This document shows, piece after piece, positions 1,090-57,465 of a DNA stretch of 64,000 nt. Origin of the DNA: a virus (lineage: Duplodnaviria > Heunggongvirae > Uroviricota > Caudoviricetes). Numbering within the stretch: the stretch's first letter is position 1; each line of letters begins with the position of its first letter. The notes beneath the pieces were generated by a model. That model worked only from the letters and a program-made list of their open reading frames with translations, ran no database searches and was not told the DNA's origin. The position numbers were made by a program, and so were the translations under genes. The DNA is taken from positions 45,443 to 109,442 of the IMG/VR virus record IMGVR_UViG_2595698871_000001. The stretch is one strand, 5' to 3'.

Positions 1090-1758
1090 ATGTCGACCGA
1101 CATCACCATGCCGCCTGACACGACGATCTTCGCGGACGTCAAGCTCAATGGCGGCGCCGGCGCGCCCGTCGATCTGGCCGATGGCGAACTCTACATCGAC
1201 GAGGCTGGACGCAAGCTCTATGTCGAGACCGTGGTCGGCGTCCAGCCGATCCCGCTCGACGTCGGCTACATCCCGCGCCGGCCCAGCGGCACGCCGCTCG
1301 ACCACGTGGTCACCAAGACCGCCACCGGCTCCGAGTGGGGGCCGCTCCAGGGCGGCGCGGGCGGCTCTCCGTTCGACGCGGCTGAGTTCCGCGTGCCGGG
1401 CATCGCGCCCACGGGCCTGGACACGGTCGTTCTGCCGGGCGCGTCCGGTGGCATGGCTCTCTTCGAGATGCCGCTCCAGGACGTCCTCCTGAGCGTGCGT
1501 GTACACGCCTCCGCCGGCGTCGGCGCGGTAACCCTGGGACTCTACCCGTTCAACGGCTCCCTGGGCTCGGAAATCTTCGCCCAGACCCTGACGTTCACCG
1601 CGCCCGAGACCCAACTGGTGCCCGTCTCCCTGGCCTTGACGCCGGGGGTGTACGCCTGGGTGTGGACGGGGGCGTCCTCCGTGACTCTGGACGCGGTCAA
1701 GGGCTCCCTGCCCTGGGCGACGAGCGAGCAGGTCCACCCCGTGGCGATGAAGTTCTAA
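1090..1758 (+). CDS. Putative virion structural protein (222 aa)
   Basis: Tightly packed ORF; motif LADGELYIDEAGRKLY resembles those of both neighbours. Confidence 0.75.
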   Translation: MSTDITMPPDTTIFADVKLNGGAGAPVDLADGELYIDEAGRKLYVETVVGVQPIPLDVGYIPRRPSGTPLDHVVTKTATGSEWGPLQGGAGGSPFDAAEFRVPGIAPTGLDTVVLPGASGGMALFEMPLQDVLLSVRVHASAGVGAVTLGLYPFNGSLGSEIFAQTLTFTAPETQLVPVSLALTPGVYAWVWTGASSVTLDAVKGSLPWATSEQVHPVAMKF

Positions 1759-3256: not shown

Positions 3257-3698
3257 ACCTCGTGGTGAGGTGAGAACGCCCTCCTCATGCACCGCTTCGG
3301 CGGTAAAGTAGGCTCCAGCCGAAGAGATGCGGGACCAGGGGACCCCGCCACCACGAACGAAGTGCGCCCCAGGTACGCCTCTGACCGAGAAAGCCCGCTG
3401 GCCGTGGGTGAAGTGTATGGTCAAGCGTCTGGGTCCCCGTCCGCCAGGACCGGCGAAGGCCATATGCGCCGAATTCCTGGACCGGATCGTAGGAGGGGAG
3501 CGTTGGCGCCGGCCCAGCAGGGAAGGGTGAAGAGCCCAGCCGGCAATTTTCTTCAACAACAAGCTTGACAGCCGTCGAGTTTCGTGAGAGCCTCCTCAAC
3601 ATTATGACGCACCTCCTCACCCGTTACGAACGCGAGGCCACCGGCCTCGATACCACCACCGCCTAAAAGCGGTTTTGGTCCGAGGCCTCTTGTGATGT

Positions 3699-4161: not shown

Positions 4162-4504
4162 AAAATATTCACCACGACGCTTGACATCCGTCGGGAGTTG
4201 TGAGAGCTTATGGACTGTCACGGATCACGACACTCCTCGGAGTGCAAAAGCGTGATCCTTCGTTTTTCACGGCCGCCAGCGGGTGGCCAGTCGAGAGTTG
4301 TCATGTTCGCCTTGTCGCATCTCAGCCTGAGCACGAAAGCCGCCTCCCCGGCGACGCTTTCGCTTGCCCTGCTGGCGACGGCCGCGAAGCCCTCGACCAA
4401 GCCGACCACCTCGGCCTCGCACTCGACGGAGACCCACTAGGGCTCTCGTCTCGGGTGCAGGCCTTGGAGCCGCACCCGCTACCTACATCCTGTAGACCTA
4501 GCGC

Positions 4505-4542
4505 AAGGCGGCTCCTCACCAGGGAGACCGCCTTTTCTTTTT
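4505..4542 (+). terminator. Intrinsic terminator
   Basis: AAGGCGG/CCGCCTT hairpin followed by TTCTTTT. Confidence 0.7.
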
Positions 4543-4554
4543 CGCGTTGATCAT

Positions 4555-4630
4555 CGGGGTGTAGCTCAGTCGGTAGAGCGCTCGGTTCGGGACCGAGAGG
4601 CCGTGGGTTCGAGTCCCGCCACCCAGACCA
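4555..4630 (+). tRNA. tRNA-Pro(CGG)
   Basis: CTCGG-TTCGGGA-CCGAG; CCA. Confidence 0.92.
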
Positions 4631-4637
4631 ACGCCAT

Positions 4638-4714
4638 CGGGATGTAGCTCAGTTTGGGAGAGCGCGCGGCTGGGGGCCGCGAGGCCGCAGGTTCAAGTCC
4701 TGCCACCCCGACCA
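4638..4714 (+). tRNA. tRNA-Pro(GGG)
   Basis: CGCGG-CTGGGGG-CCGCG; CCA. Confidence 0.92.
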
Positions 4715-4719
4715 ACAAC

Positions 4720-4792
4720 GCTGTTGCGCGTGGCTTCGCGCCCACCCCTTGGTATGGGGCGGTAGAAGGTTCAATTCCTTCCAGCAGCACCA
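4720..4792 (+). tRNA. Atypical tRNA-Thr(GGT), miniature D-arm
   Basis: 7-bp acceptor, CGCG-TGGCTT-CGCG, loop TTGGTAT, canonical T-arm, CCA. Confidence 0.65.
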
Positions 4793-4797
4793 ACAAC

Positions 4798-4867
4798 GCC
4801 GATGCCTCTGGGAGGACGCGCCTTTCGTAAGGGTGCGAGGTGGGTTCAATCCCCACTTTCGGCTCCA
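4798..4867 (+). tRNA. Atypical tRNA-Thr(CGT), miniature D-arm
   Basis: CCTC-TGG-GAGG, 6-bp anticodon stem with loop TTCGTAA, T-arm, CCA. Confidence 0.65.
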
Positions 4868-4922
4868 TCAAACAGCCTGCGGGCTATATCGGAGATCAAG
4901 TTTCATAGCCTCCAGGCTATAT

Positions 4923-5009
4923 GGATGTGTCACCTCAGTGGCGAGAGGAACGGGCTCTTAATCCGTCAGCGCAAGCTCACCGTGGGTTCGAGTCCCACCA
5001 CATCCTCCA
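4923..5009 (+). tRNA. tRNA-Lys(CTT) with long variable arm
   Basis: ACGGG-CTCTTAA-TCCGT; variable arm AGC-GCAA-GCT; CCA. Confidence 0.85.
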
Positions 5010-5014
5010 ACAAT

Positions 5015-5104
5015 GCACAAGTGACCCGAGCGGCGAAGGGCGTCGACTTTTAATCGACTAGGCGTCCAGCCTCACCGAGGGTTCGAGTCCCTCCTTGTGC
5101 TCCA
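5015..5104 (+). tRNA. tRNA-Lys(TTT) with long variable arm
   Basis: GTCGA-CTTTTAA-TCGAC; variable arm AGGC-GTCCA-GCCT; CCA. Confidence 0.85.
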
Positions 5105-5107
5105 TGT

Positions 5108-5194
5108 GCGAATGTGGCGGAACTGGTAGACGCGCCGGCCTCAGGTGCCGGTGCCCTTCGGGGCGTGTGGGTTCGAGTCCCACCTTTCGTACCA
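5108..5194 (+). tRNA. tRNA-Leu(CAG)
   Basis: CCGGC-CTCAGGT-GCCGG; class II; CCA. Confidence 0.92.
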
Positions 5195-5201
5195 ACGACA
5201 T

Positions 5202-5289
5202 GCCTTGCTGGCGGAAGTGGTAGACGCACTGTTCTCAAAAAGCAGGCCGGGCGACCGGGCTCTGGGTTCGATCCCCAGGTGAGGCACCA
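5202..5289 (+). tRNA. tRNA-Leu(CAA)
   Basis: Loop CTCAAAA; class II; CCA. Confidence 0.9.
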
Positions 5290-5296
5290 AGACTGA

Positions 5297-5384
5297 TGCG
5301 AAGTGGCGGAAACTGGTAGACGCACCGGCATGAGAGGCCGGCGCCCTTCGGGGCGTGAGGGTTCGAGTCCCTTCTTCGCGACCA
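5297..5384 (+). tRNA. tRNA-Leu(GAG)
   Basis: CCGGC-ATGAGAG-GCCGG; class II; CCA. Confidence 0.9.
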
Positions 5385-5387
5385 ATG

Positions 5388-5450
5388 TCCCGATCGGGAA
5401 GATTCCAGGCGGCGCGGCGCTCGCGACACCCGGATTTTCCCGATCGGGAA
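5388..5450. repeat. Two copies of palindrome TCCCGATCGGGA
   Basis: 5388-5399 and 5437-5450 (TTCCCGATCGGGAA), 50 nt apart. Confidence 0.8.
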
Positions 5451-5464
5451 GACGACGAGATTAT

Positions 5465-5535
5465 GCTGATCGCCGCTGGGCGGGGAGCGGGTTGTGTCCC
5501 CGCTAGGCACGGTTCGATCCCGTGGGTCAGTACCA
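5465..5535 (+). tRNA. Atypical tRNA-His(GTG), miniature D-arm
   Basis: CCGC-TGG-GCGG; AGCGGG-TTGTGTC-CCCGCT; T-arm; A73; CCA. Confidence 0.6.
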
Positions 5536-5540
5536 GATAC

Positions 5541-5611
5541 GGGGTATGCGCAGGGCGCAGGCATCCTTTGCAAGGAAGTCGGGGTGGGTTCGAGTCCCAC
5601 ATACTCCACCA
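5541..5611 (+). tRNA. Atypical tRNA-Ala(TGC), miniature D-arm
   Basis: G3.U70 pair; GCGC-AGG-GCGC; loop TTTGCAA; T-arm; CCA. Confidence 0.75.
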
Positions 5612-5615
5612 ACAT

Positions 5616-5705
5616 GGAAGGTCAACCGGACAGGCGCGCCGGGACTGCCTCGAAAGCAGATCGCACTCTCCGGGGTGTGGGGATCGAGACCTCGGCCTTC
5701 CTCCA
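5616..5705 (+). tRNA. tRNA-Ser(CGA)
   Basis: Loop CTCGAAA; long variable arm; T-loop ATCGAGA; CCA. Confidence 0.8.
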
Positions 5706-5709
5706 ATAT

Positions 5710-5799
5710 GGTGAGCGAACGGGACAGGCGTGCCCGGTCCGCCTGGAAAGCGCGACGCACTCTCCGGGGTGTGGGATTCGAGTTCTCCGCTCACCGCCA
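5710..5799 (+). tRNA. tRNA-Ser(GGA)
   Basis: Loop CTGGAAA; long variable arm; G73; CCA. Confidence 0.85.
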
Positions 5800-5803
5800 A
5801 CAG

Positions 5804-5894
5804 GGTAGGCGAACCGGACAGGCGCGCCGGCGCCGTTTGCTAAACGAGCGGCACTCTCCGGGGGTGTGGGATTCAAGCTCTCCGCCTACCGCCA
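5804..5894 (+). tRNA. tRNA-Ser(GCT)
   Basis: Loop TTGCTAA; long variable arm; G73; CCA. Confidence 0.85.
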
Positions 5895-6170
5895 TTTTGA
5901 TGTTGACGCCGGCCAGCACCGATGTCATACGTCACGACAGAGCCAACGCCCTCGGCCGGGTTGGTGGATGTGCCGGTTGCATCGCGCCCCGTCGAGCCCT
6001 AGTAGCTCTTGCCGTGGAGTTTTCCGCCTCCCTCCCAGACAAGGAGGCGGACCCCTACATCGCGATCCAGTGATCGTCGGCGACGGGCGCCGTCAGAGCC
6101 CCTTGCGCGCGGGAACGCTGCGGAGGGGATCGTCCCGACCACATTTTTCGACCCACGTTAACTTTTCTTC

Positions 6171-6199
6171 TTGACCTTCCCGAAAACGTAGTGTAGCTT
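6171..6199 (+). promoter_or_regulatory. Sigma70-type promoter
   Basis: TTGACC-N17-TAGCTT. Confidence 0.6.
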
Positions 6200-6328
6200 T
6201 CCCGTCATGAGCAAGTCGTACCGTCAATTCGTGCAGATTCAGGTCGTCCGGAATTTCCGGGCGGGCCGTTCGCGCATGGATGATGGCGGGACCTTTATCT
6301 AGGTCCAGACACCTCAACCCAATTCGCG

Positions 6329-6368
6329 AAAGGCCCGCCTGGACACCCAGGCGGGCCTTTTTCTTTTT
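6329..6368 (+). terminator. Intrinsic terminator
   Basis: 14-bp perfect stem AAAGGCCCGCCTGG/CCAGGCGGGCCTTT plus T-run. Confidence 0.85.
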
Positions 6369-6425
6369 CCGTTTCGCTGATCCGCAGGAGATCGCAGATG
6401 AACAACGGGGGCTAGTCCTCCACAT

Positions 6426-6510
6426 GGATGCTTAAAGCTGGAGGGCTCCAGCCGGGGGCTGTAAACCCCCTCTCTTCGGAGGAGTGGTTCGATCCCACAA
6501 GCATCCACCA
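6426..6510 (+). tRNA. tRNA-Tyr(GTA), unusual 6-bp D-stem
   Basis: GGGGG-CTGTAAA-CCCCC; variable arm CTC-TTCG-GAG; CCA. Confidence 0.8.
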
Positions 6511-6515
6511 ATCAT

Positions 6516-6591
6516 GGACTCGTAGCTCAGCAGGTAGAGCGCCGGCTTGAAACCCCGGAGGTCGGAGGTTCGATTCCTCCCGTTTCCACCA
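6516..6591 (+). tRNA. tRNA-Phe(GAA)
   Basis: Loop TTGAAAC; CCA. Confidence 0.9.
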
Positions 6592-6596
6592 ACAAC

Positions 6597-6672
6597 GCCC
6601 GATGAGCCAGATGGGAAGGCACCGCTTTGACATGGCGGCATTGAGAAGGTTCGATTCCTTCATCAGGCACCA
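6597..6672 (+). tRNA. tRNA-Val(GAC)
   Basis: CCGCT-TTGACAT-GGCGG; CCA. Confidence 0.85.
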
Positions 6673-6677
6673 ACCAC

Positions 6678-6753
6678 GCAAGTGTAGCTCAGTTGGTAGA
6701 GCAGCGGACCGATAATCCGCCCGTCCCTGGTTCGAGTCCAGGCATTTGCACCA
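6678..6753 (+). tRNA. tRNA-Ile(GAT), C33
   Basis: GCGGA-CCGATAA-TCCGC; CCA. Confidence 0.88.
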
Positions 6754-6760
6754 TTTCTGA

Positions 6761-6836
6761 TGTGGCATAGCTCAGGGGTCAGAGCGCGCGCTTGATAAGC
6801 GTGAGGTCGGTGGTTCGAGACCACCTGTCACTACCA
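6761..6836 (+). tRNA. tRNA-Ile(GAT)
   Basis: CGCGC-TTGATAA-GCGTG; CCA. Confidence 0.9.
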
Positions 6837-6870
6837 ATTCCCAGGCCCGGTGGAGATGCGCCGGTTCTGT

Positions 6871-6944
6871 AGGCGATTAGCTCAATGGTAGAGCAGGGGT
6901 GCCACATACCTCGGTCGTAGGTTCGATTCCTACATCGCCCACCA
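6871..6944 (+). tRNA. tRNA-Val(CAC), G32/C33
   Basis: GGGGT-GCCACAT-ACCTC; CCA. Confidence 0.8.
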
Positions 6945-6950
6945 ACATGT

Positions 6951-7024
6951 TGAGGGTTCGTCTAACGGTAGGACGCCTGGGTCTGGTCCAGGTAATCTAG
7001 GTTCGAGTCCTAGCCCCTCATCCA
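6951..7024 (+). tRNA. tRNA-Gln(CTG)
   Basis: CCTGG-GTCTGGT-CCAGG; U1-A72; CCA. Confidence 0.9.
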
Positions 7025-7030
7025 AGTTGT

Positions 7031-7104
7031 TCTCGGGTCGTCTAATGGTAAGACATCTGGTTTTGGTCCAGAGGATTGGGGTTCGATTCCTTGGCCGAGA
7101 GCCA
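7031..7104 (+). tRNA. tRNA-Gln(TTG)
   Basis: TCTGG-TTTTGGT-CCAGA; U1-A72; CCA. Confidence 0.9.
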
Positions 7105-7121
7105 ACTGCTTTAGAGTTCAT

Positions 7122-7196
7122 TCCAGTCAATGCACAAGGTGTGCAGCGGCACTGTTAATGCCTGTGAGCCCGGTTCGATTCCGGGGTCTGGAGCCA
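7122..7196 (+). tRNA. tRNA-Asn(GTT)
   Basis: Loop CTGTTAA; U1-A72; 5-bp D-stem; CCA. Confidence 0.85.
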
Positions 7197-7221
7197 ACAC
7201 GCCGGCCAAGGCCGGTCATGC

Positions 7222-7304
7222 GCCCTGGTAACCGAGGGGGATTACGAATCCCTTAGTCGTAGCAGGAGTTGAAAAGGGTGGTTCGAATCCACTCCAGGGT
7301 GCCA
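7222..7304 (+). tRNA. Atypical tRNA-Arg(ACG)-like, no D-arm
   Basis: 7-bp acceptor; GGGGA-TTACGAA-TCCCT; T-arm; CCA; only 8 nt where the D-arm should be. Confidence 0.55.
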
Positions 7305-7311
7305 AATCTAT

Positions 7312-7394
7312 AGCGCGCAGGCCGATCAGGATCATCGTCAGGCGTCGCCCTCCGAAGGCGAAGAGGCCCGGTTCGAGTCCGGGGCGCGCTGCCA
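7312..7394 (+). tRNA. tRNA-Arg(CCG), enlarged D-loop
   Basis: TCGCC-CTCCGAA-GGCGA; CCA. Confidence 0.85.
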
Positions 7395-7397
7395 ACT

Positions 7398-7475
7398 GCG
7401 CGGGTAGCTCAACGGAACCAGAGCAGCCGTCTTCTACACGGTGGGTTGGGGGTTCGAGTCCCTCCCCGTGCGCCA
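7398..7475 (+). tRNA. tRNA-Arg(TCT)
   Basis: GCCGT-CTTCTAC-ACGGT; CCA. Confidence 0.9.
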
Positions 7476-7812
7476 AAACTTGACGGGCAATGCCGAATCG
7501 CCCAACTTCGACCCTGGCTCTCGGTGGGCCACGATTGCACGCCGTCGGTGCCCTGGCCGTACACCCAGGGAGCAGCCCGGCGGCGTTCCAACACGGTTTC
7601 TGGACGATCTTCGAACGCGGCTTGCCGTGGAGGGGTGCTGGATAGGGCCGAGGTAGGAGGAACCATCGAGCATCTCCTAATCCCGGCCTGGGCCTCCTGG
7701 GGGCTCCGCTGGGTCGATCAGGGCCTGACCCGACCCCGGAGATGCGCCGACCTAGATCACCCAGGATCGCTGGGTCGGTTGAAAGGGTCTGAAATTTTCT
7801 GGCTCCTATGTG

Positions 7813-57099: not shown

Positions 57100-57465
57100 G
57101 CATCGTTGTAATTCGGACAACGGAAACGGCGGCAAGACGGGGGTGCGATTCCCCCCGCCTCCACCACCACGAGCCCCTGGCGCTGGGAGTACGCGACTCC
57201 TGGGCAGGGAGTGTTACCCTGGCGGACCATTGCTGGCCCGAGCCAAAGGTAGCCGGGGGTTCTTGATGCTGGGGGCGATCAGCTTCGATTGGCGCATGTG
57301 ACTGGAAGACGCAACGGTGGGTGACCTCCAGGCCAGCTTGCTGGTGATCGGGTCGAAGCAACAGAAATGTCGCTGCAAATGACAACGCTCCGTTCGCGGT
57401 GCGTGAAGCCATCGCCGCCTAATAAGCGGTAGAGGCGTGTCCCGGCGGACGCGCGTGTCACAAAA
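57100..57465 (+). ncRNA. ssrA: Circularly permuted two-piece tmRNA (outer ends approximate)
   Basis: T-arm plus CGCCTCC-A-CCA ending 57166; GGGGGCG at 57271 giving G3.U70; tag ANDNAPFAVREAIAA at 57375-57422. Confidence 0.92.

Follow-up and report, generated by a model that had tools for sequence, protein, structure and literature searches.

The pyrrolysine tRNA (tRNAPyl) is an L-shaped molecule with a compact core, in which the connector between acceptor stem and D stem measures 0 nt in Methanomethylophilus alvus (M. alvus) and 1 nt in M. barkeri and D. hafniense (PMC7609411). Its D loop is small (4–5 nt), its anticodon stem consists of 6 bp and may hold an unpaired base, its variable region is 3 nt long, and acceptor and T stems show the 7/5 arrangement. 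It lacks both G18G19 and the T54-Psi55-C56 motif, carries a CUA anticodon and has a dedicated synthetase (PylRS); it is class II-charged and used by ordinary EF-Tu and ribosomes (PMC7609411). Mammalian mitochondrial tRNA-Ser(UCN), a "type I" mt-tRNA, has a one-nucleotide connector, a small D loop, a 6-bp anticodon stem and a 3-nt variable region, keeps G18G19 and T-Psi-C, and folds into an L shape (PMC7609411). It is organellar, has serine identity and is served by a co-evolved mitochondrial SerRS. The engineered "mini HisT" is a synthetic tRNA-His without a D arm, for which a Y shape is predicted; it is unstable, with PNPase as the limiting factor (PMC11551756). The same paper, from 2024, describes all known bacterial tRNAs as canonical (PMC11551756).

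Here we describe four compact-core tRNA genes, Thr(GGU), Thr(CGU), His(GUG) and Ala(UGC), in the window, by which we mean the whole 64,000-nt stretch of DNA analysed. The source is a phiCbK-like Caulobacter phage, probably CcrRogue. Judged from sequence comparison, all four are likely to be working elongator tRNA genes of this phage, built on the compact core. Their positions and helix parse (Table 1) are as first read in an initial annotation of this DNA. A literature search found no description of these compact phage tRNAs.

Table 1. Compact-core tRNA genes and associated features of the window. The parse lists, 5′ to 3′, acceptor strand / connector / D arm / spacer / anticodon arm / variable region / T arm / acceptor strand / discriminator / CCA.
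Feature	Position	Strand	Length	Parse	Remarks
Conserved mini-ORF	4303..4440	+	45 codons		upstream of Pro-Thr-Lys-Leu-His-Ala-Ser tRNA block
Terminator-like hairpin and T-run	4507..4543	+			between mini-ORF and tRNA block; read from sequence
Compact-core tRNA-Thr(GGU)	4720..4792	+	73 nt	7 / 0 / 4-6-4 / 1 / 7-7-7 / 2 / 5-7-5 / 7 / A / CCA	CCA encoded
Compact-core tRNA-Thr(CGU)	4798..4867	+	70 nt	7 / 0 / 4-3-4 / 1 / 7-7-7 / 2 / 5-7-5 / 7 / U / CCA	CCA encoded
Compact-core tRNA-His(GUG)	5465..5535	+	71 nt	7 / 1 / 4-3-4 / 1 / 7-7-7 / 2 / 5-7-5 / 7 / A / CCA	CCA encoded
Compact-core tRNA-Ala(UGC)	5541..5611	+	71 nt	7 / 0 / 4-3-4 / 1 / 7-7-7 / 3 / 5-7-5 / 7 / A / CCA	CCA encoded
Strong terminator	6328..6361	+			15-pair stem, then T-run; closes transcription unit with the four genes

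Like the canonical tRNAs modelled by Rfam RF00005, all four genes have a 7-bp acceptor stem, a discriminator, an encoded CCA, a 7-nt anticodon loop with U33, and a 5-bp T stem with a 7-nt loop of T-Psi-C type (UUCRAnn); like their canonical neighbours they occupy a phage tRNA array whose spacers measure 5 nt, and they carry standard identity elements. In contrast to canonical tRNAs, they lack U8 and N9, have D loops of 3–6 nt instead of 7–11 nt, an extended anticodon stem (6–7 positions) instead of 5 bp, and variable regions of 2–3 nt instead of 4–5 nt. Acceptor pair 7:66 abuts the first D pair in Thr-GGU (D stem CGCG/CGCG, 6-nt loop UGGCUU), Thr-CGU (D arm CCUC-UGG-GAGG) and Ala (GCGC-AGG-GCGC), and a single G intervenes in His (CCGC-UGG-GCGG). 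The D loop thus lies within the small range of about 3–5 nt in three genes; that of Thr-GGU is longer in the window, and orthologue D loops measure 3–4 nt (4 nt in Thr-GGU of phage Domovoi). In His the first D-stem pair covaries (CG to GC); in the other three genes it does not vary, so that their D stem may also be read as 3 bp long behind a 1-nt connector. The sixth anticodon-stem pair changes on both sides in Thr-CGU (pair 21:39, GC to AU) and Ala (GC/CG/GU), and is partly supported in His; in Thr-GGU only four inner pairs and the closing outer C-G are constant, and two inner positions are variable and usually mismatched. The compact cloverleaf lies 1.2–5 kcal/mol above the single-sequence minimum free energy structure.

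The closest known architectures are tRNAPyl of the M. alvus type and mitochondrial tRNA-Ser(UCN). The likeness to the latter had been pointed out in the initial annotation and is correct according to the review cited above (PMC7609411); tRNAPyl is as close or closer. The phage tRNAs resemble tRNAPyl in the connector of 0–1 nt, the small D loop, the short variable region, the 7/5 arrangement and, as predicted, a lengthened anticodon stem and a compact L shape, and we propose that they likewise are class II-charged and used by ordinary EF-Tu and ribosomes. They differ in that they keep G18G19 and the T-loop motif, and in that they serve sense codons (Thr, His and Ala) and carry identity elements of the host type. 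The features of tRNAPyl proper (CUA, G73 with G1:C72, loss of G18G19 and T-Psi-C, PylRS) are absent; because the anticodons are GGU, CGU, GUG and UGC, and GG and UUCRA are kept, the phage genes share the architecture of tRNAPyl without belonging to it, and the comparison gave no sign of common descent. With tRNA-Ser(UCN) they share the reduced connector, the small D loop, the short variable region, both elbow motifs and, as predicted, the longer anticodon stem and the L-shaped fold; they differ in that they mostly lack a connector altogether, have up to 7 anticodon-stem positions, and comprise several identities that would be served by unmodified bacterial synthetases. Mini HisT, which is charged by an alphaproteobacterial G-1-independent HisRS and used by bacterial EF-Tu and ribosomes, resembles the phage His gene in being a tRNA-His whose D region is drastically reduced; the phage tRNAs, in contrast, occur naturally and have kept a D stem of 4 bp together with the GG that the elbow requires.

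The shared architecture was examined with a descriptor (7-bp acceptor stem, connector of 0–1 nt, 4-bp D stem, loop of 3–6 nt with GG, 1 spacer nucleotide, anticodon stem of 6–7 positions, variable region of 2–3 nt, normal T arm, encoded CCA). Run on both strands of the window, it matches four times, precisely at the four genes, and it matches nowhere in 200 dinucleotide shuffles of the window. A relaxed version force-fits canonical tRNAs and gave 4 matches in 30 shuffles (one strand). The descriptor was written because a pooled covariance model (R2), meant for a broad blind search, failed to tell His (36.1 bits) apart from canonical tRNAs (34.3 bits). When a covariance model was made from the Thr-CGU orthologues only, Ala, Thr-GGU and His aligned to it over their full length with 47.1, 42.5 and 33.6 bits, and every other tRNA in the array scored at most 30.2 bits. 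The descriptor and this model both confirm the initial claim of one architecture common to all four genes.

Standard models and the original genome paper missed these genes. The gathering threshold of RF00005 is 29 bits; Ala (23.2 bits) and Thr-CGU (17.6 bits) fall below it, and no match was listed for Thr-GGU and His at E-values up to 10. Scores of 42–65 bits are reached by 20 further tRNAs of this array, and roughly one in three of its tRNA-like genes lies below the threshold. ARAGORN, suggested as a check at the outset, found three of the four (Thr-CGU was absent) and forced their folds into the canonical frame, e.g. by giving Thr-GGU a mispaired acceptor stem starting at 4717; these folds were dropped because covariation supports the compact one. 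An additional tRNA-Ala called by ARAGORN at positions 149330–149403 of the genome is a false positive with poor stems and neither G3:U70 nor a T-loop motif. The published inventory, based on tRNAscan-SE 1.21 and Rfam, lists a His tRNA for Colossus alone and a Thr tRNA for none of the phiCbK-like phages (Gill et al., 2012). The expectation that scanners may miss such genes was thus borne out, with all four lost at the Rfam threshold and one of four by ARAGORN. Thr-CGU orthologues are unannotated in GenBank relatives, except in Colossus, where the label is "tRNA-Pseudo".

This label raises the question of whether the genes are pseudogenes in decay that arose from canonical tRNAs when parts of the D region were deleted, and some stem mismatches and the degenerate T loop of the phiCbK-type His gene would fit such an origin. 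However, the fold is kept in orthologues from Caulobacter and Brevundimonas phages, where 91–98% of cells pair, compared to 34–61% in slid controls. The values are 94.0% for Thr-GGU (slid controls 40–61%), 91.3% for Thr-CGU, 97.8% for His and 94.9% for Ala, with 4, 5, 8 and 6 pairs changed on both sides, respectively; acceptor, D, anticodon and T stems are all represented. These counts are based on only 4–8 distinct sequences per family, from related phages; none of 500 shuffles reached the observed covariation score. Examples of changes on both sides are D-stem pairs 10:19 (CG to UA) and 11:18 (GC to CG or AU) in Thr-GGU and D-stem pair 9:17 in Thr-CGU. RNAalifold independently gives the compact cloverleaf for His. 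Covariance-model alignment was used, with BLAST coordinates for the orthologues of the Thr families; a joint MAFFT alignment of the four families was discarded, because in it His was wrongly aligned and Ala stood one column off. The compact genes do not diverge faster than their canonical neighbours (83–100% and 80–100% identity to phiCbK, respectively), and the Ala gene is 100% identical in phiCbK, BL57, Ccr10, Magneto, Swift, RBC57 and Ccr5. The decay without compensation that the initial annotation had named as refuting its proposal is hence not what the homologue alignment displays, and a pseudogene origin, already disfavoured, is scarcely credible. Since the shape is kept in relatives by compensating mutations, the genes very probably encode working tRNAs.

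The identity elements noted at first reading (G3:U70 in Ala, C2-G71 in Thr, A73 without G-1 in His) are all present. The identity set of bacterial ThrRS comprises G1-C72, C2-G71, G35 and U36. In both Thr families G1-C72, C2-G71 and the anticodons GGU and CGU are invariant. In Ala, which has A73, G3:U70 is found in six of six distinct variants while pairs 5–7 change on both sides, and it is also kept in the Ala gene of an uncultured phage contig from a metagenome (L188). The His gene shows the G-1-less identity set of the Caulobacter type (PMC3064791), with GUG, G1:U72 (four of four variants) and no G-1 (the preceding base is T); A73 is present in the window, BL10 and BL57, and U73 in the phiCbK group. 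Some observations count against function. The anticodon loop of His (UUGUGUC) has an unusual U at position 37, where a purine is nearly universal in tRNA. The His version of phiCbK, Ccr10 and RBC57 combines an off-consensus T loop (AUCGUUA) with U73, the acceptor stem of Thr-CGU contains a U6.U67 mismatch (U.U in four of five variants), and mismatches persist in the anticodon stems of Thr-GGU and of Ala, in which 28:42 is always mismatched. Host tRNA features were taken from the literature, according to which the determinants of Caulobacter HisRS are the anticodon, U72 and A73, and D-loop size (9 nt with U20a) made a difference in a transplant experiment (PMC3064791). The phage His gene lacks this 9-nt D loop with U20a as well as G37 (its D loop measures 3–4 nt), which also counts against its function.

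Non-canonical cores, sub-threshold Rfam scores and U37 in His could likewise be expected of tRNA-shaped RNAs that do not decode, e.g. processing punctuation, regulators or mimics. We regard such a role as quite improbable: the 7-nt anticodon loops with U33 are invariant across phages in all four families while the stems covary, aminoacylation identity elements and CCA are kept, and the anticodons fit both the codon usage and a leader mini-ORF. Apart from the compact genes, the 223,720-bp genome has no tRNA gene for Thr, His or Ala. If the compact genes and the other odd genes are counted, the anticodons of the phage span 19 amino acids, a near-complete set matched to codon usage. Threonine codons of the phage are ACC (65.4%), ACU (2.1%), ACG (31.6%) and ACA (1.0%), so that anticodons GGU and CGU cover 99%. 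On the other side of the balance, GCC makes up 62.6% of the alanine codons, and Ala-UGC does not obviously read it. In the mini-ORF, annotated in relatives as a 138-nt CDS, 42 of the 45 residues are A, L, S, H, T, K or P (P about 1e-13 given a background of 43%), the same seven amino acids as those of the 14 tRNAs behind it. Its codons include 8 for Thr (four ACC, four ACG), 3 for His and 9 for Ala. The phiCbK homologue of the hairpin that follows is annotated as a rho-independent terminator; a simple terminator scan of the window did not list it.

In the compact core, nucleotides 8 and 9 are absent or reduced to one, the D loop is trimmed to little more than G18-G19, the variable region is cut to 2–3 nt, and one or two base pairs would be added atop the anticodon stem. 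We hypothesize the following mechanism. The resulting stack of anticodon stem (7), spacer (1) and D stem (4) would be about as high as the canonical stack of 5, pair 26:44, 4 and two tertiary layers, so that the GG of the tiny D loop could reach the normal T loop and close the L shape, as in tRNAPyl and mitochondrial tRNA-Ser(UCN). The four genes would be transcribed in a single tRNA block (about 4546–6361), excised by host RNase P with 3′ trimming, and charged by host ThrRS, HisRS and AlaRS. In phage mRNAs they may read ACC/ACU, ACG, CAC/CAU and GCA/GCG, possibly more GCN. ThrRS, HisRS and AlaRS belong to class II and recognise the acceptor end and/or the anticodon rather than the D arm. By default we consider the compact core to be structural drift tolerated in tRNAs whose synthetases need no D arm. 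There is precedent: compact-core tRNAPyl functions with the standard translation machinery (PMC7609411), and an alphaproteobacterial HisRS charges a tRNA-His that lacks the D arm altogether, which E. coli EF-Tu and ribosomes also accept (PMC11551756).

A refinement, which does not deny decoding, is that the compact core was selected for. The tRNAs would then be poor substrates for factors that recognise the canonical elbow or D-arm region, e.g. tRNA-targeting nucleases of the host or of rivals, or host-tRNA turnover during infection, and the phage would run on a private, distinct tRNA set; we consider this possible but unlikely. The near-complete, codon-matched set and the share of array genes below the Rfam threshold fit such selection. 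Colossus and CcrPW keep a canonical Ala-UGC beside the compact one, which argues against simple redundancy, and the compact Ala gene is perfectly conserved in phages between which the adjacent tRNAs differ by as much as 20%. However, no nuclease, ligase or tRNA-repair gene was identified near the array in the annotated phiCbK record, and nothing ties Caulobacter defences to Thr, His or Ala tRNAs. Most array tRNAs are canonical, hence the set is not uniformly disguised, and drift tolerated by class II synthetases accounts for the same data. Only tentatively may the core be viewed as an adaptation by which the near-complete and partly re-architected tRNA set of Dolichocephalovirinae keeps working once canonical host tRNAs have been cleaved, depleted or sequestered in infection. 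This doubtful scenario would include natural tRNAs of tRNAPyl-like build for Thr, His and Ala, and for Gly in an uncultured phage, all class II-charged; if true, it would provide natural compact tRNA scaffolds for several sense codons.

Beyond Caulobacter phages, compact Ala occurs in Brevundimonas phages, in an uncultured contig from IMG/VR (L019) and in L188; one of these two contigs also carries compact Gly. The IMG/VR scan with 15-mers from the anticodon arms of Ala and Thr-GGU returned mostly chance or canonical-tRNA matches, with L019 as the only new case, and one of eight matches in the metagenome scan was real (L188). Among 185,579 prokaryote genomes three matches were found, none of them a tRNA, i.e. 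no host or prophage copy by that pattern. A tblastn search with a 513-aa ORF beside the L019 array found nothing in 50,697 phage records, which indicates that this contig is not a close relative of cultured phages. Of the proposal that these genes form a recurrent phage class, what stands is recurrence within Dolichocephalovirinae and, for compact Ala, in the two uncultured phage contigs.

Compact cores have so far been known from pyrrolysine and one mitochondrial serine tRNA; here they appear in sense-codon tRNAs of phages. Because these tRNAs must work with ordinary ThrRS, HisRS, AlaRS, EF-Tu and ribosomes, the limits of tRNA-shape tolerance in bacteria become directly testable. The compact identities seen (Thr, His, Ala, Gly) are all class II, which points to a simple rule governing the kinds of tRNA that may dispense with core nucleotides. 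The compact bodies could also serve as natural scaffolds in orthogonal tRNA engineering. Gene finders and covariance models that were tuned to the canonical cloverleaf count too few tRNAs in phages. The published record of phiCbK-like phages, with no Thr and mostly no His or Ala tRNA, is hereby corrected: all of these phages have genes for Thr(GGU), Thr(CGU) and Ala(UGC), to which the phiCbK/Rogue lineage adds compact His(GUG).

An unusual tRNA architecture with a miniature D arm had been proposed for four elements of the window by the initial annotation, and one common layout parses for each of them at the same coordinates (see table). The acceptor stem of 7 bp is followed directly, or in His after a connector of 1 nt, by a D stem of 4 bp with loops UGG, UGG and AGG, and UGGCUU in Thr-GGU. 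A single spacer nucleotide leads to an anticodon stem of 7 positions and an anticodon loop of 7 nt with U33; a variable region of 2–3 nt, a T stem of 5 bp with loop UUCRAnn, a discriminator and an encoded CCA complete each gene. A descriptor of this layout finds exactly these four genes on both strands of the 64-kb window and none in 200 dinucleotide shuffles of it; in 1.76 Mb of other DNA its matches are orthologues and one further compact tRNA only. A covariance model of Thr-CGU orthologues only aligns the other three end to end (Ala 47.1, Thr-GGU 42.5, His 33.6 bits), with no more than small insertions, of 1 nt in Ala and His and of 3 nt within the D loop of Thr-GGU. Its next-best match is the odd Asn-like gene of the array (30.2 bits), and canonical tRNAs of the array reach at most 29.8 bits.

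Coordinates of compact tRNA genes and further elements of the window and of related sequences
Feature	Sequence	Position	Strand	Remarks
tRNA-Thr(GGU), compact	window	4720-4792	+	family: 94.0% of cells paired, 4 pairs changed on both sides
tRNA-Thr(CGU), compact	window	4798-4867	+	family: 91.3% of cells paired, 5 pairs changed on both sides
tRNA-His(GUG), compact	window	5465-5535	+	family: 97.8% of cells paired, 8 pairs changed on both sides
tRNA-Ala(UGC), compact	window	5541-5611	+	family: 94.9% of cells paired, 6 pairs changed on both sides
Mini-ORF	window	4303-4440	+	45 codons; conserved in BL10, phiCbK, BL57 and Ccr10
Two tRNA-Lys genes (CUU, UUU)	window	4923-5104	+	87-90 nt; long class II-type variable arms; U discriminator
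Spacer 5' of tRNA-His	window	5385-5464	+	80 nt; GC-rich stretch between two copies of CCCGATCGGGAAGA, both with palindromic cores
Three tandem class II tRNA-Ser-like genes	window	5617-5895	+	~90 nt; anticodons CGA, GGA, GCT
Putative tRNA-Asn(GUU)	window	7122-7196	+	ARAGORN call tRNA-Ile(AAU); 6-bp D stem UGCACA/UGUGCA with 3-nt AGG loop; below Rfam threshold; 100% conserved in BL10, BL57 and phiCbK
Two tRNA-like genes, Arg anticodons ACG and CCG	window	7222-7304, 7312-7394	+	83 nt each; abnormal D regions; 99-100% conserved in phiCbK
Weak tRNA-Sec match	window	7221-7301		22.9 bits
'Skipping-rope' RNA match (Rfam RF02924)	window	3260-3356	+	45.8 bits (threshold 36.7); directly 3' of tRNA-Gly(UCC)
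Permuted tmRNA match (two-piece, alphaproteobacterial-type)	window	57104-57422	+	88.2 bits; adjoins tRNA-Cys and two tRNA-Met genes
tRNA-Ala(UGC), canonical	Colossus	4737-4811		75 nt
tRNA-Ala(UGC), compact	Colossus	4817-4889		D loop enlarged by a 2-nt insertion
tRNA-Ala(UGC), canonical	CcrPW	4742-4816		75 nt
tRNA-Ala(UGC), compact	CcrPW	4822-4892
tRNA-Gly(GCC), compact	metagenome contig Ga0326597_10001060 (L188)	1126-1197		found by layout descriptor, missed by ARAGORN; connector of 1 nt, D stem of 4 bp, GG-containing D loop of 4 nt; 7-position anticodon stem with A.A mismatch

By megablast, positions 4500-7500 belong to the large tRNA array of a phiCbK-like Caulobacter phage, with Caulobacter phage CcrBL10 as best relative (93.7% identity) and phiCbK, Magneto, Swift, Karma and Ccr phages at 83–88% identity. 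The phage record, of which the window covers bases 45443-109442, has 223,720 bp with direct terminal repeats and holds no Thr, His or Ala tRNA genes besides the four; an ARAGORN 'Ala' call at genome position 149330 was rejected as a false positive.

All phiCbK-like phages examined have orthologues, as do Colossus, CcrPW and Brevundimonas phages, the last carrying Thr-GGU, Thr-CGU and Ala. The pair counts in the table refer to a hand-given compact cloverleaf and to distinct sequences only; with the 3' partners slid by 1–3 columns, pairing drops to 34–61%. For each family, the observed covariation score exceeds those of all 500 column shuffles, by a measure that, as the tool warns, is inflated by relatedness. 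Changes on both sides affect D-stem pairs in Thr-GGU (CG to UA; GC to CG or AU), Thr-CGU (CG to UA) and His (first pair, CG to GC), as well as the extra, sixth pair of the anticodon stem in Thr-CGU (GC to AU) and Ala (GC, CG and GU), so that the very features defining the odd architecture appear to be supported by covariation. RNAalifold without a supplied structure recovers precisely the compact cloverleaf in the case of His; the cloverleaf that it gives for Thr-GGU has an anticodon stem of 4 bp. Identity to phiCbK is 83–100% for the compact genes versus 80–100% for canonical neighbours; His is more diverged, with no BLAST match in phiCbK, and for the Ala gene identity is 100% across eight phages. 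Decay into pseudogenes, which an alignment of homologues was to reveal, is not tenable in view of the compensatory changes in all four families, the conserved fold, the orthologues and a divergence like that of canonical neighbours.

The fold is not free of irregularities. Each gene's compact cloverleaf lies 1.2–5 kcal/mol from the single-sequence minimum free energy, mainly due to spurious pairing within anticodon loops. Only four pairs and the outer C-G of the Thr-GGU anticodon stem are constant, the two positions between being mismatched in most phages; Ala 28:42 is mismatched in every variant (A.A, A.C or A.G), and U6.U67 is found in four of five Thr-CGU variants. His has U37, and its version in phiCbK, Ccr10 and RBC57 also has an off-consensus T loop and U73. 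Since the first D-stem pair is invariant in three of the four families, a D stem of 3 bp preceded by a 1-nt connector could also apply there.

It had been expected that standard scanners may miss such genes. Indeed, none of the four passes the Rfam tRNA threshold (29 bits), and ARAGORN calls Thr-GGU, His and Ala and misses Thr-CGU. Its drawings are forced into a canonical frame, including 3-bp D stems with mismatches and a mispaired Thr-GGU acceptor stem that begins 3 nt too early. A permissive Rfam search scores Ala at 23.2 bits and Thr-CGU at 17.6 bits, with no tRNA match for Thr-GGU or His. GenBank records annotate Thr-GGU, His and Ala in CcrBL10, Ala alone of the four in Magneto, Swift and Ccr5, and none in phiCbK, BL57, Ccr10 and RBC57; the Colossus record labels its Thr-CGU orthologue 'tRNA-Pseudo'.

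The array holds further odd tRNA-like genes. The gene called tRNA-Ile(AAU) by ARAGORN is probably tRNA-Asn(GUU) with loop CUGUUAA, as indicated by covariance-model alignment and its U1-A72/G73 ends. The Ser-like trio has no ARAGORN call in the window, and none of its members passes the Rfam threshold; records of relatives annotate the first two as tRNA-Ser, and the anticodons fit the dominant Ser codons (TCG 44.7%, AGC 27.2%, TCC 23.2%). Neither gene of the Arg-like pair is called by ARAGORN or reaches the Rfam threshold; CGC and CGU make up 72.6% of phage Arg codons. The published inventory, made with tRNAscan-SE 1.21 and Rfam, lists Asn in Colossus only, Rogue without a Ser tRNA, and no functional RNA besides tRNAs from Rfam (Gill et al., 2012).

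The identity elements named initially persist. Ala G3:U70 is kept in six of six variants with adjoining acceptor pairs replaced, and G1-C72 and C2-G71 are kept in both Thr families. His has G1:U72 in four of four variants, A73 in this phage and, because the base preceding G1 is T, no G-1. Measurements on C. crescentus HisRS gave this same identity set, with activity falling 91- to 1000-fold for anticodon mutants, 91-fold for U72C and 3-fold for A73C; as a caution, D-loop size mattered in a transplant experiment with this enzyme (PMC3064791). An alphaproteobacterial HisRS of this G-1-independent type charges a fully D-armless tRNA-His, and E. coli EF-Tu and ribosomes accept the product (PMC11551756). 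In about 200 high-GC3 ORFs of the phage genome, Thr codons are ACC (65.4%), ACG (31.6%), ACU (2.1%) and ACA (1.0%); GGU and CGU therefore cover 99% of them, and the absent UGU isoacceptor would serve 1%. His codons are fully covered; Ala-UGC covers GCG (30.5%) and GCA (1.8%), and its reading of GCC (62.6% of Ala codons) depends on the state of U34.

Upstream, the mini-ORF sits between a TTGACA-containing stretch (~4181) and a terminator-like hairpin (~4507-4543). In its product, 42 of 45 residues are A, L, S, H, T, K or P (P ~1e-13 versus a 43% background for these seven), exactly the amino acids of the 14 tRNA genes 3' of it (Pro x2, Thr x2, Lys x2, Leu x3, His, Ala, Ser x3); its codons include 8 for Thr (ACC x4, ACG x4), 3 for His and 9 for Ala. 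As this match needs the compact genes to be counted as Thr, His and Ala, the composition, whatever the mechanism, independently supports their assignment and a tie to decoding.

A compact core may be compatible with the common L shape. The 3' half would have canonical length (7 stem plus 3 variable equals 5 stem plus 5 variable), with shortening confined to the 5' half. The compact stack would count about 12 layers, 7 from the anticodon stem, 1 from the spacer and 4 from the D stem. The canonical stack would also count about 12, made up of 5 from the anticodon stem, one at 26:44, 4 from the D stem and two tertiary layers to which nucleotides 8, 14, 15, 21 and 48 contribute; with equal layer counts, the GG of the tiny D loop could still meet Psi55 and C56. 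Such contact at the elbow would follow the logic accepted for mitochondrial tRNA-Ser(UCN) and tRNAPyl, both L-shaped (PMC7609411). The acceptor/T domain would suffice for RNase P and AlaRS, and ThrRS and Caulobacter HisRS would read acceptor end and anticodon. Class II synthetases approach tRNA from the side away from the D arm, and each identity found among the compact tRNAs (Thr, His, Ala, Gly) falls in this class; with four amino acids, about 1 in 16 by chance, a tie between compact core and class II synthetases is suggestive only.

Among known tRNAs, tRNAPyl of M. barkeri combines a connector of 1 nt and a D loop of 5 nt with an anticodon stem of 6 bp and a variable loop of 3 nt, and tRNAPyl of M. 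alvus lacks a connector, its D loop having 4 nt and its 6-bp anticodon stem being broken; mitochondrial tRNA-Ser(UCN) has the same layout with G18G19 and T-Psi-C kept (PMC7609411), in line with the likeness pointed out initially. The phage tRNAs share the junction of the M. alvus type and the retained elbow motifs of tRNA-Ser(UCN). This is shared architecture without family membership, because anticodons, identities and synthetases differ. No paper describing these phage tRNAs was found in a literature search, and they appear to be new to the literature.

The Thr-GGU/Thr-CGU pair and Ala are retained across Caulobacter and Brevundimonas phages. Compact His is limited to the phiCbK/Rogue lineage; Colossus, CcrPW and Brevundimonas phages have a His tRNA of 75–76 nt in its place. 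In Colossus and in CcrPW, canonical and compact tRNA-Ala adjoin each other and share their anticodon. Compact Ala is further present in an IMG/VR contig (L019) with a 31-tRNA array of different gene order, where tblastn with a neighbouring 513-aa ORF gives no match among 50,697 phage records, and in metagenome contig L188, whose array includes the compact Gly. The same sequence pattern yields no tRNA in an exact-pattern search of 185,579 prokaryote genomes. The build, initially termed recurrent, is thus repeated across a set of phage tRNA arrays, and this search did not reveal it in cellular genomes.

Overall, these data support the initial interpretation, and we consider it highly probable, judging from sequence comparison, that the four genes are working compact-core tRNAs. 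Adaptive disguise appears an unlikely reason for the compact core; we favour tolerated drift.
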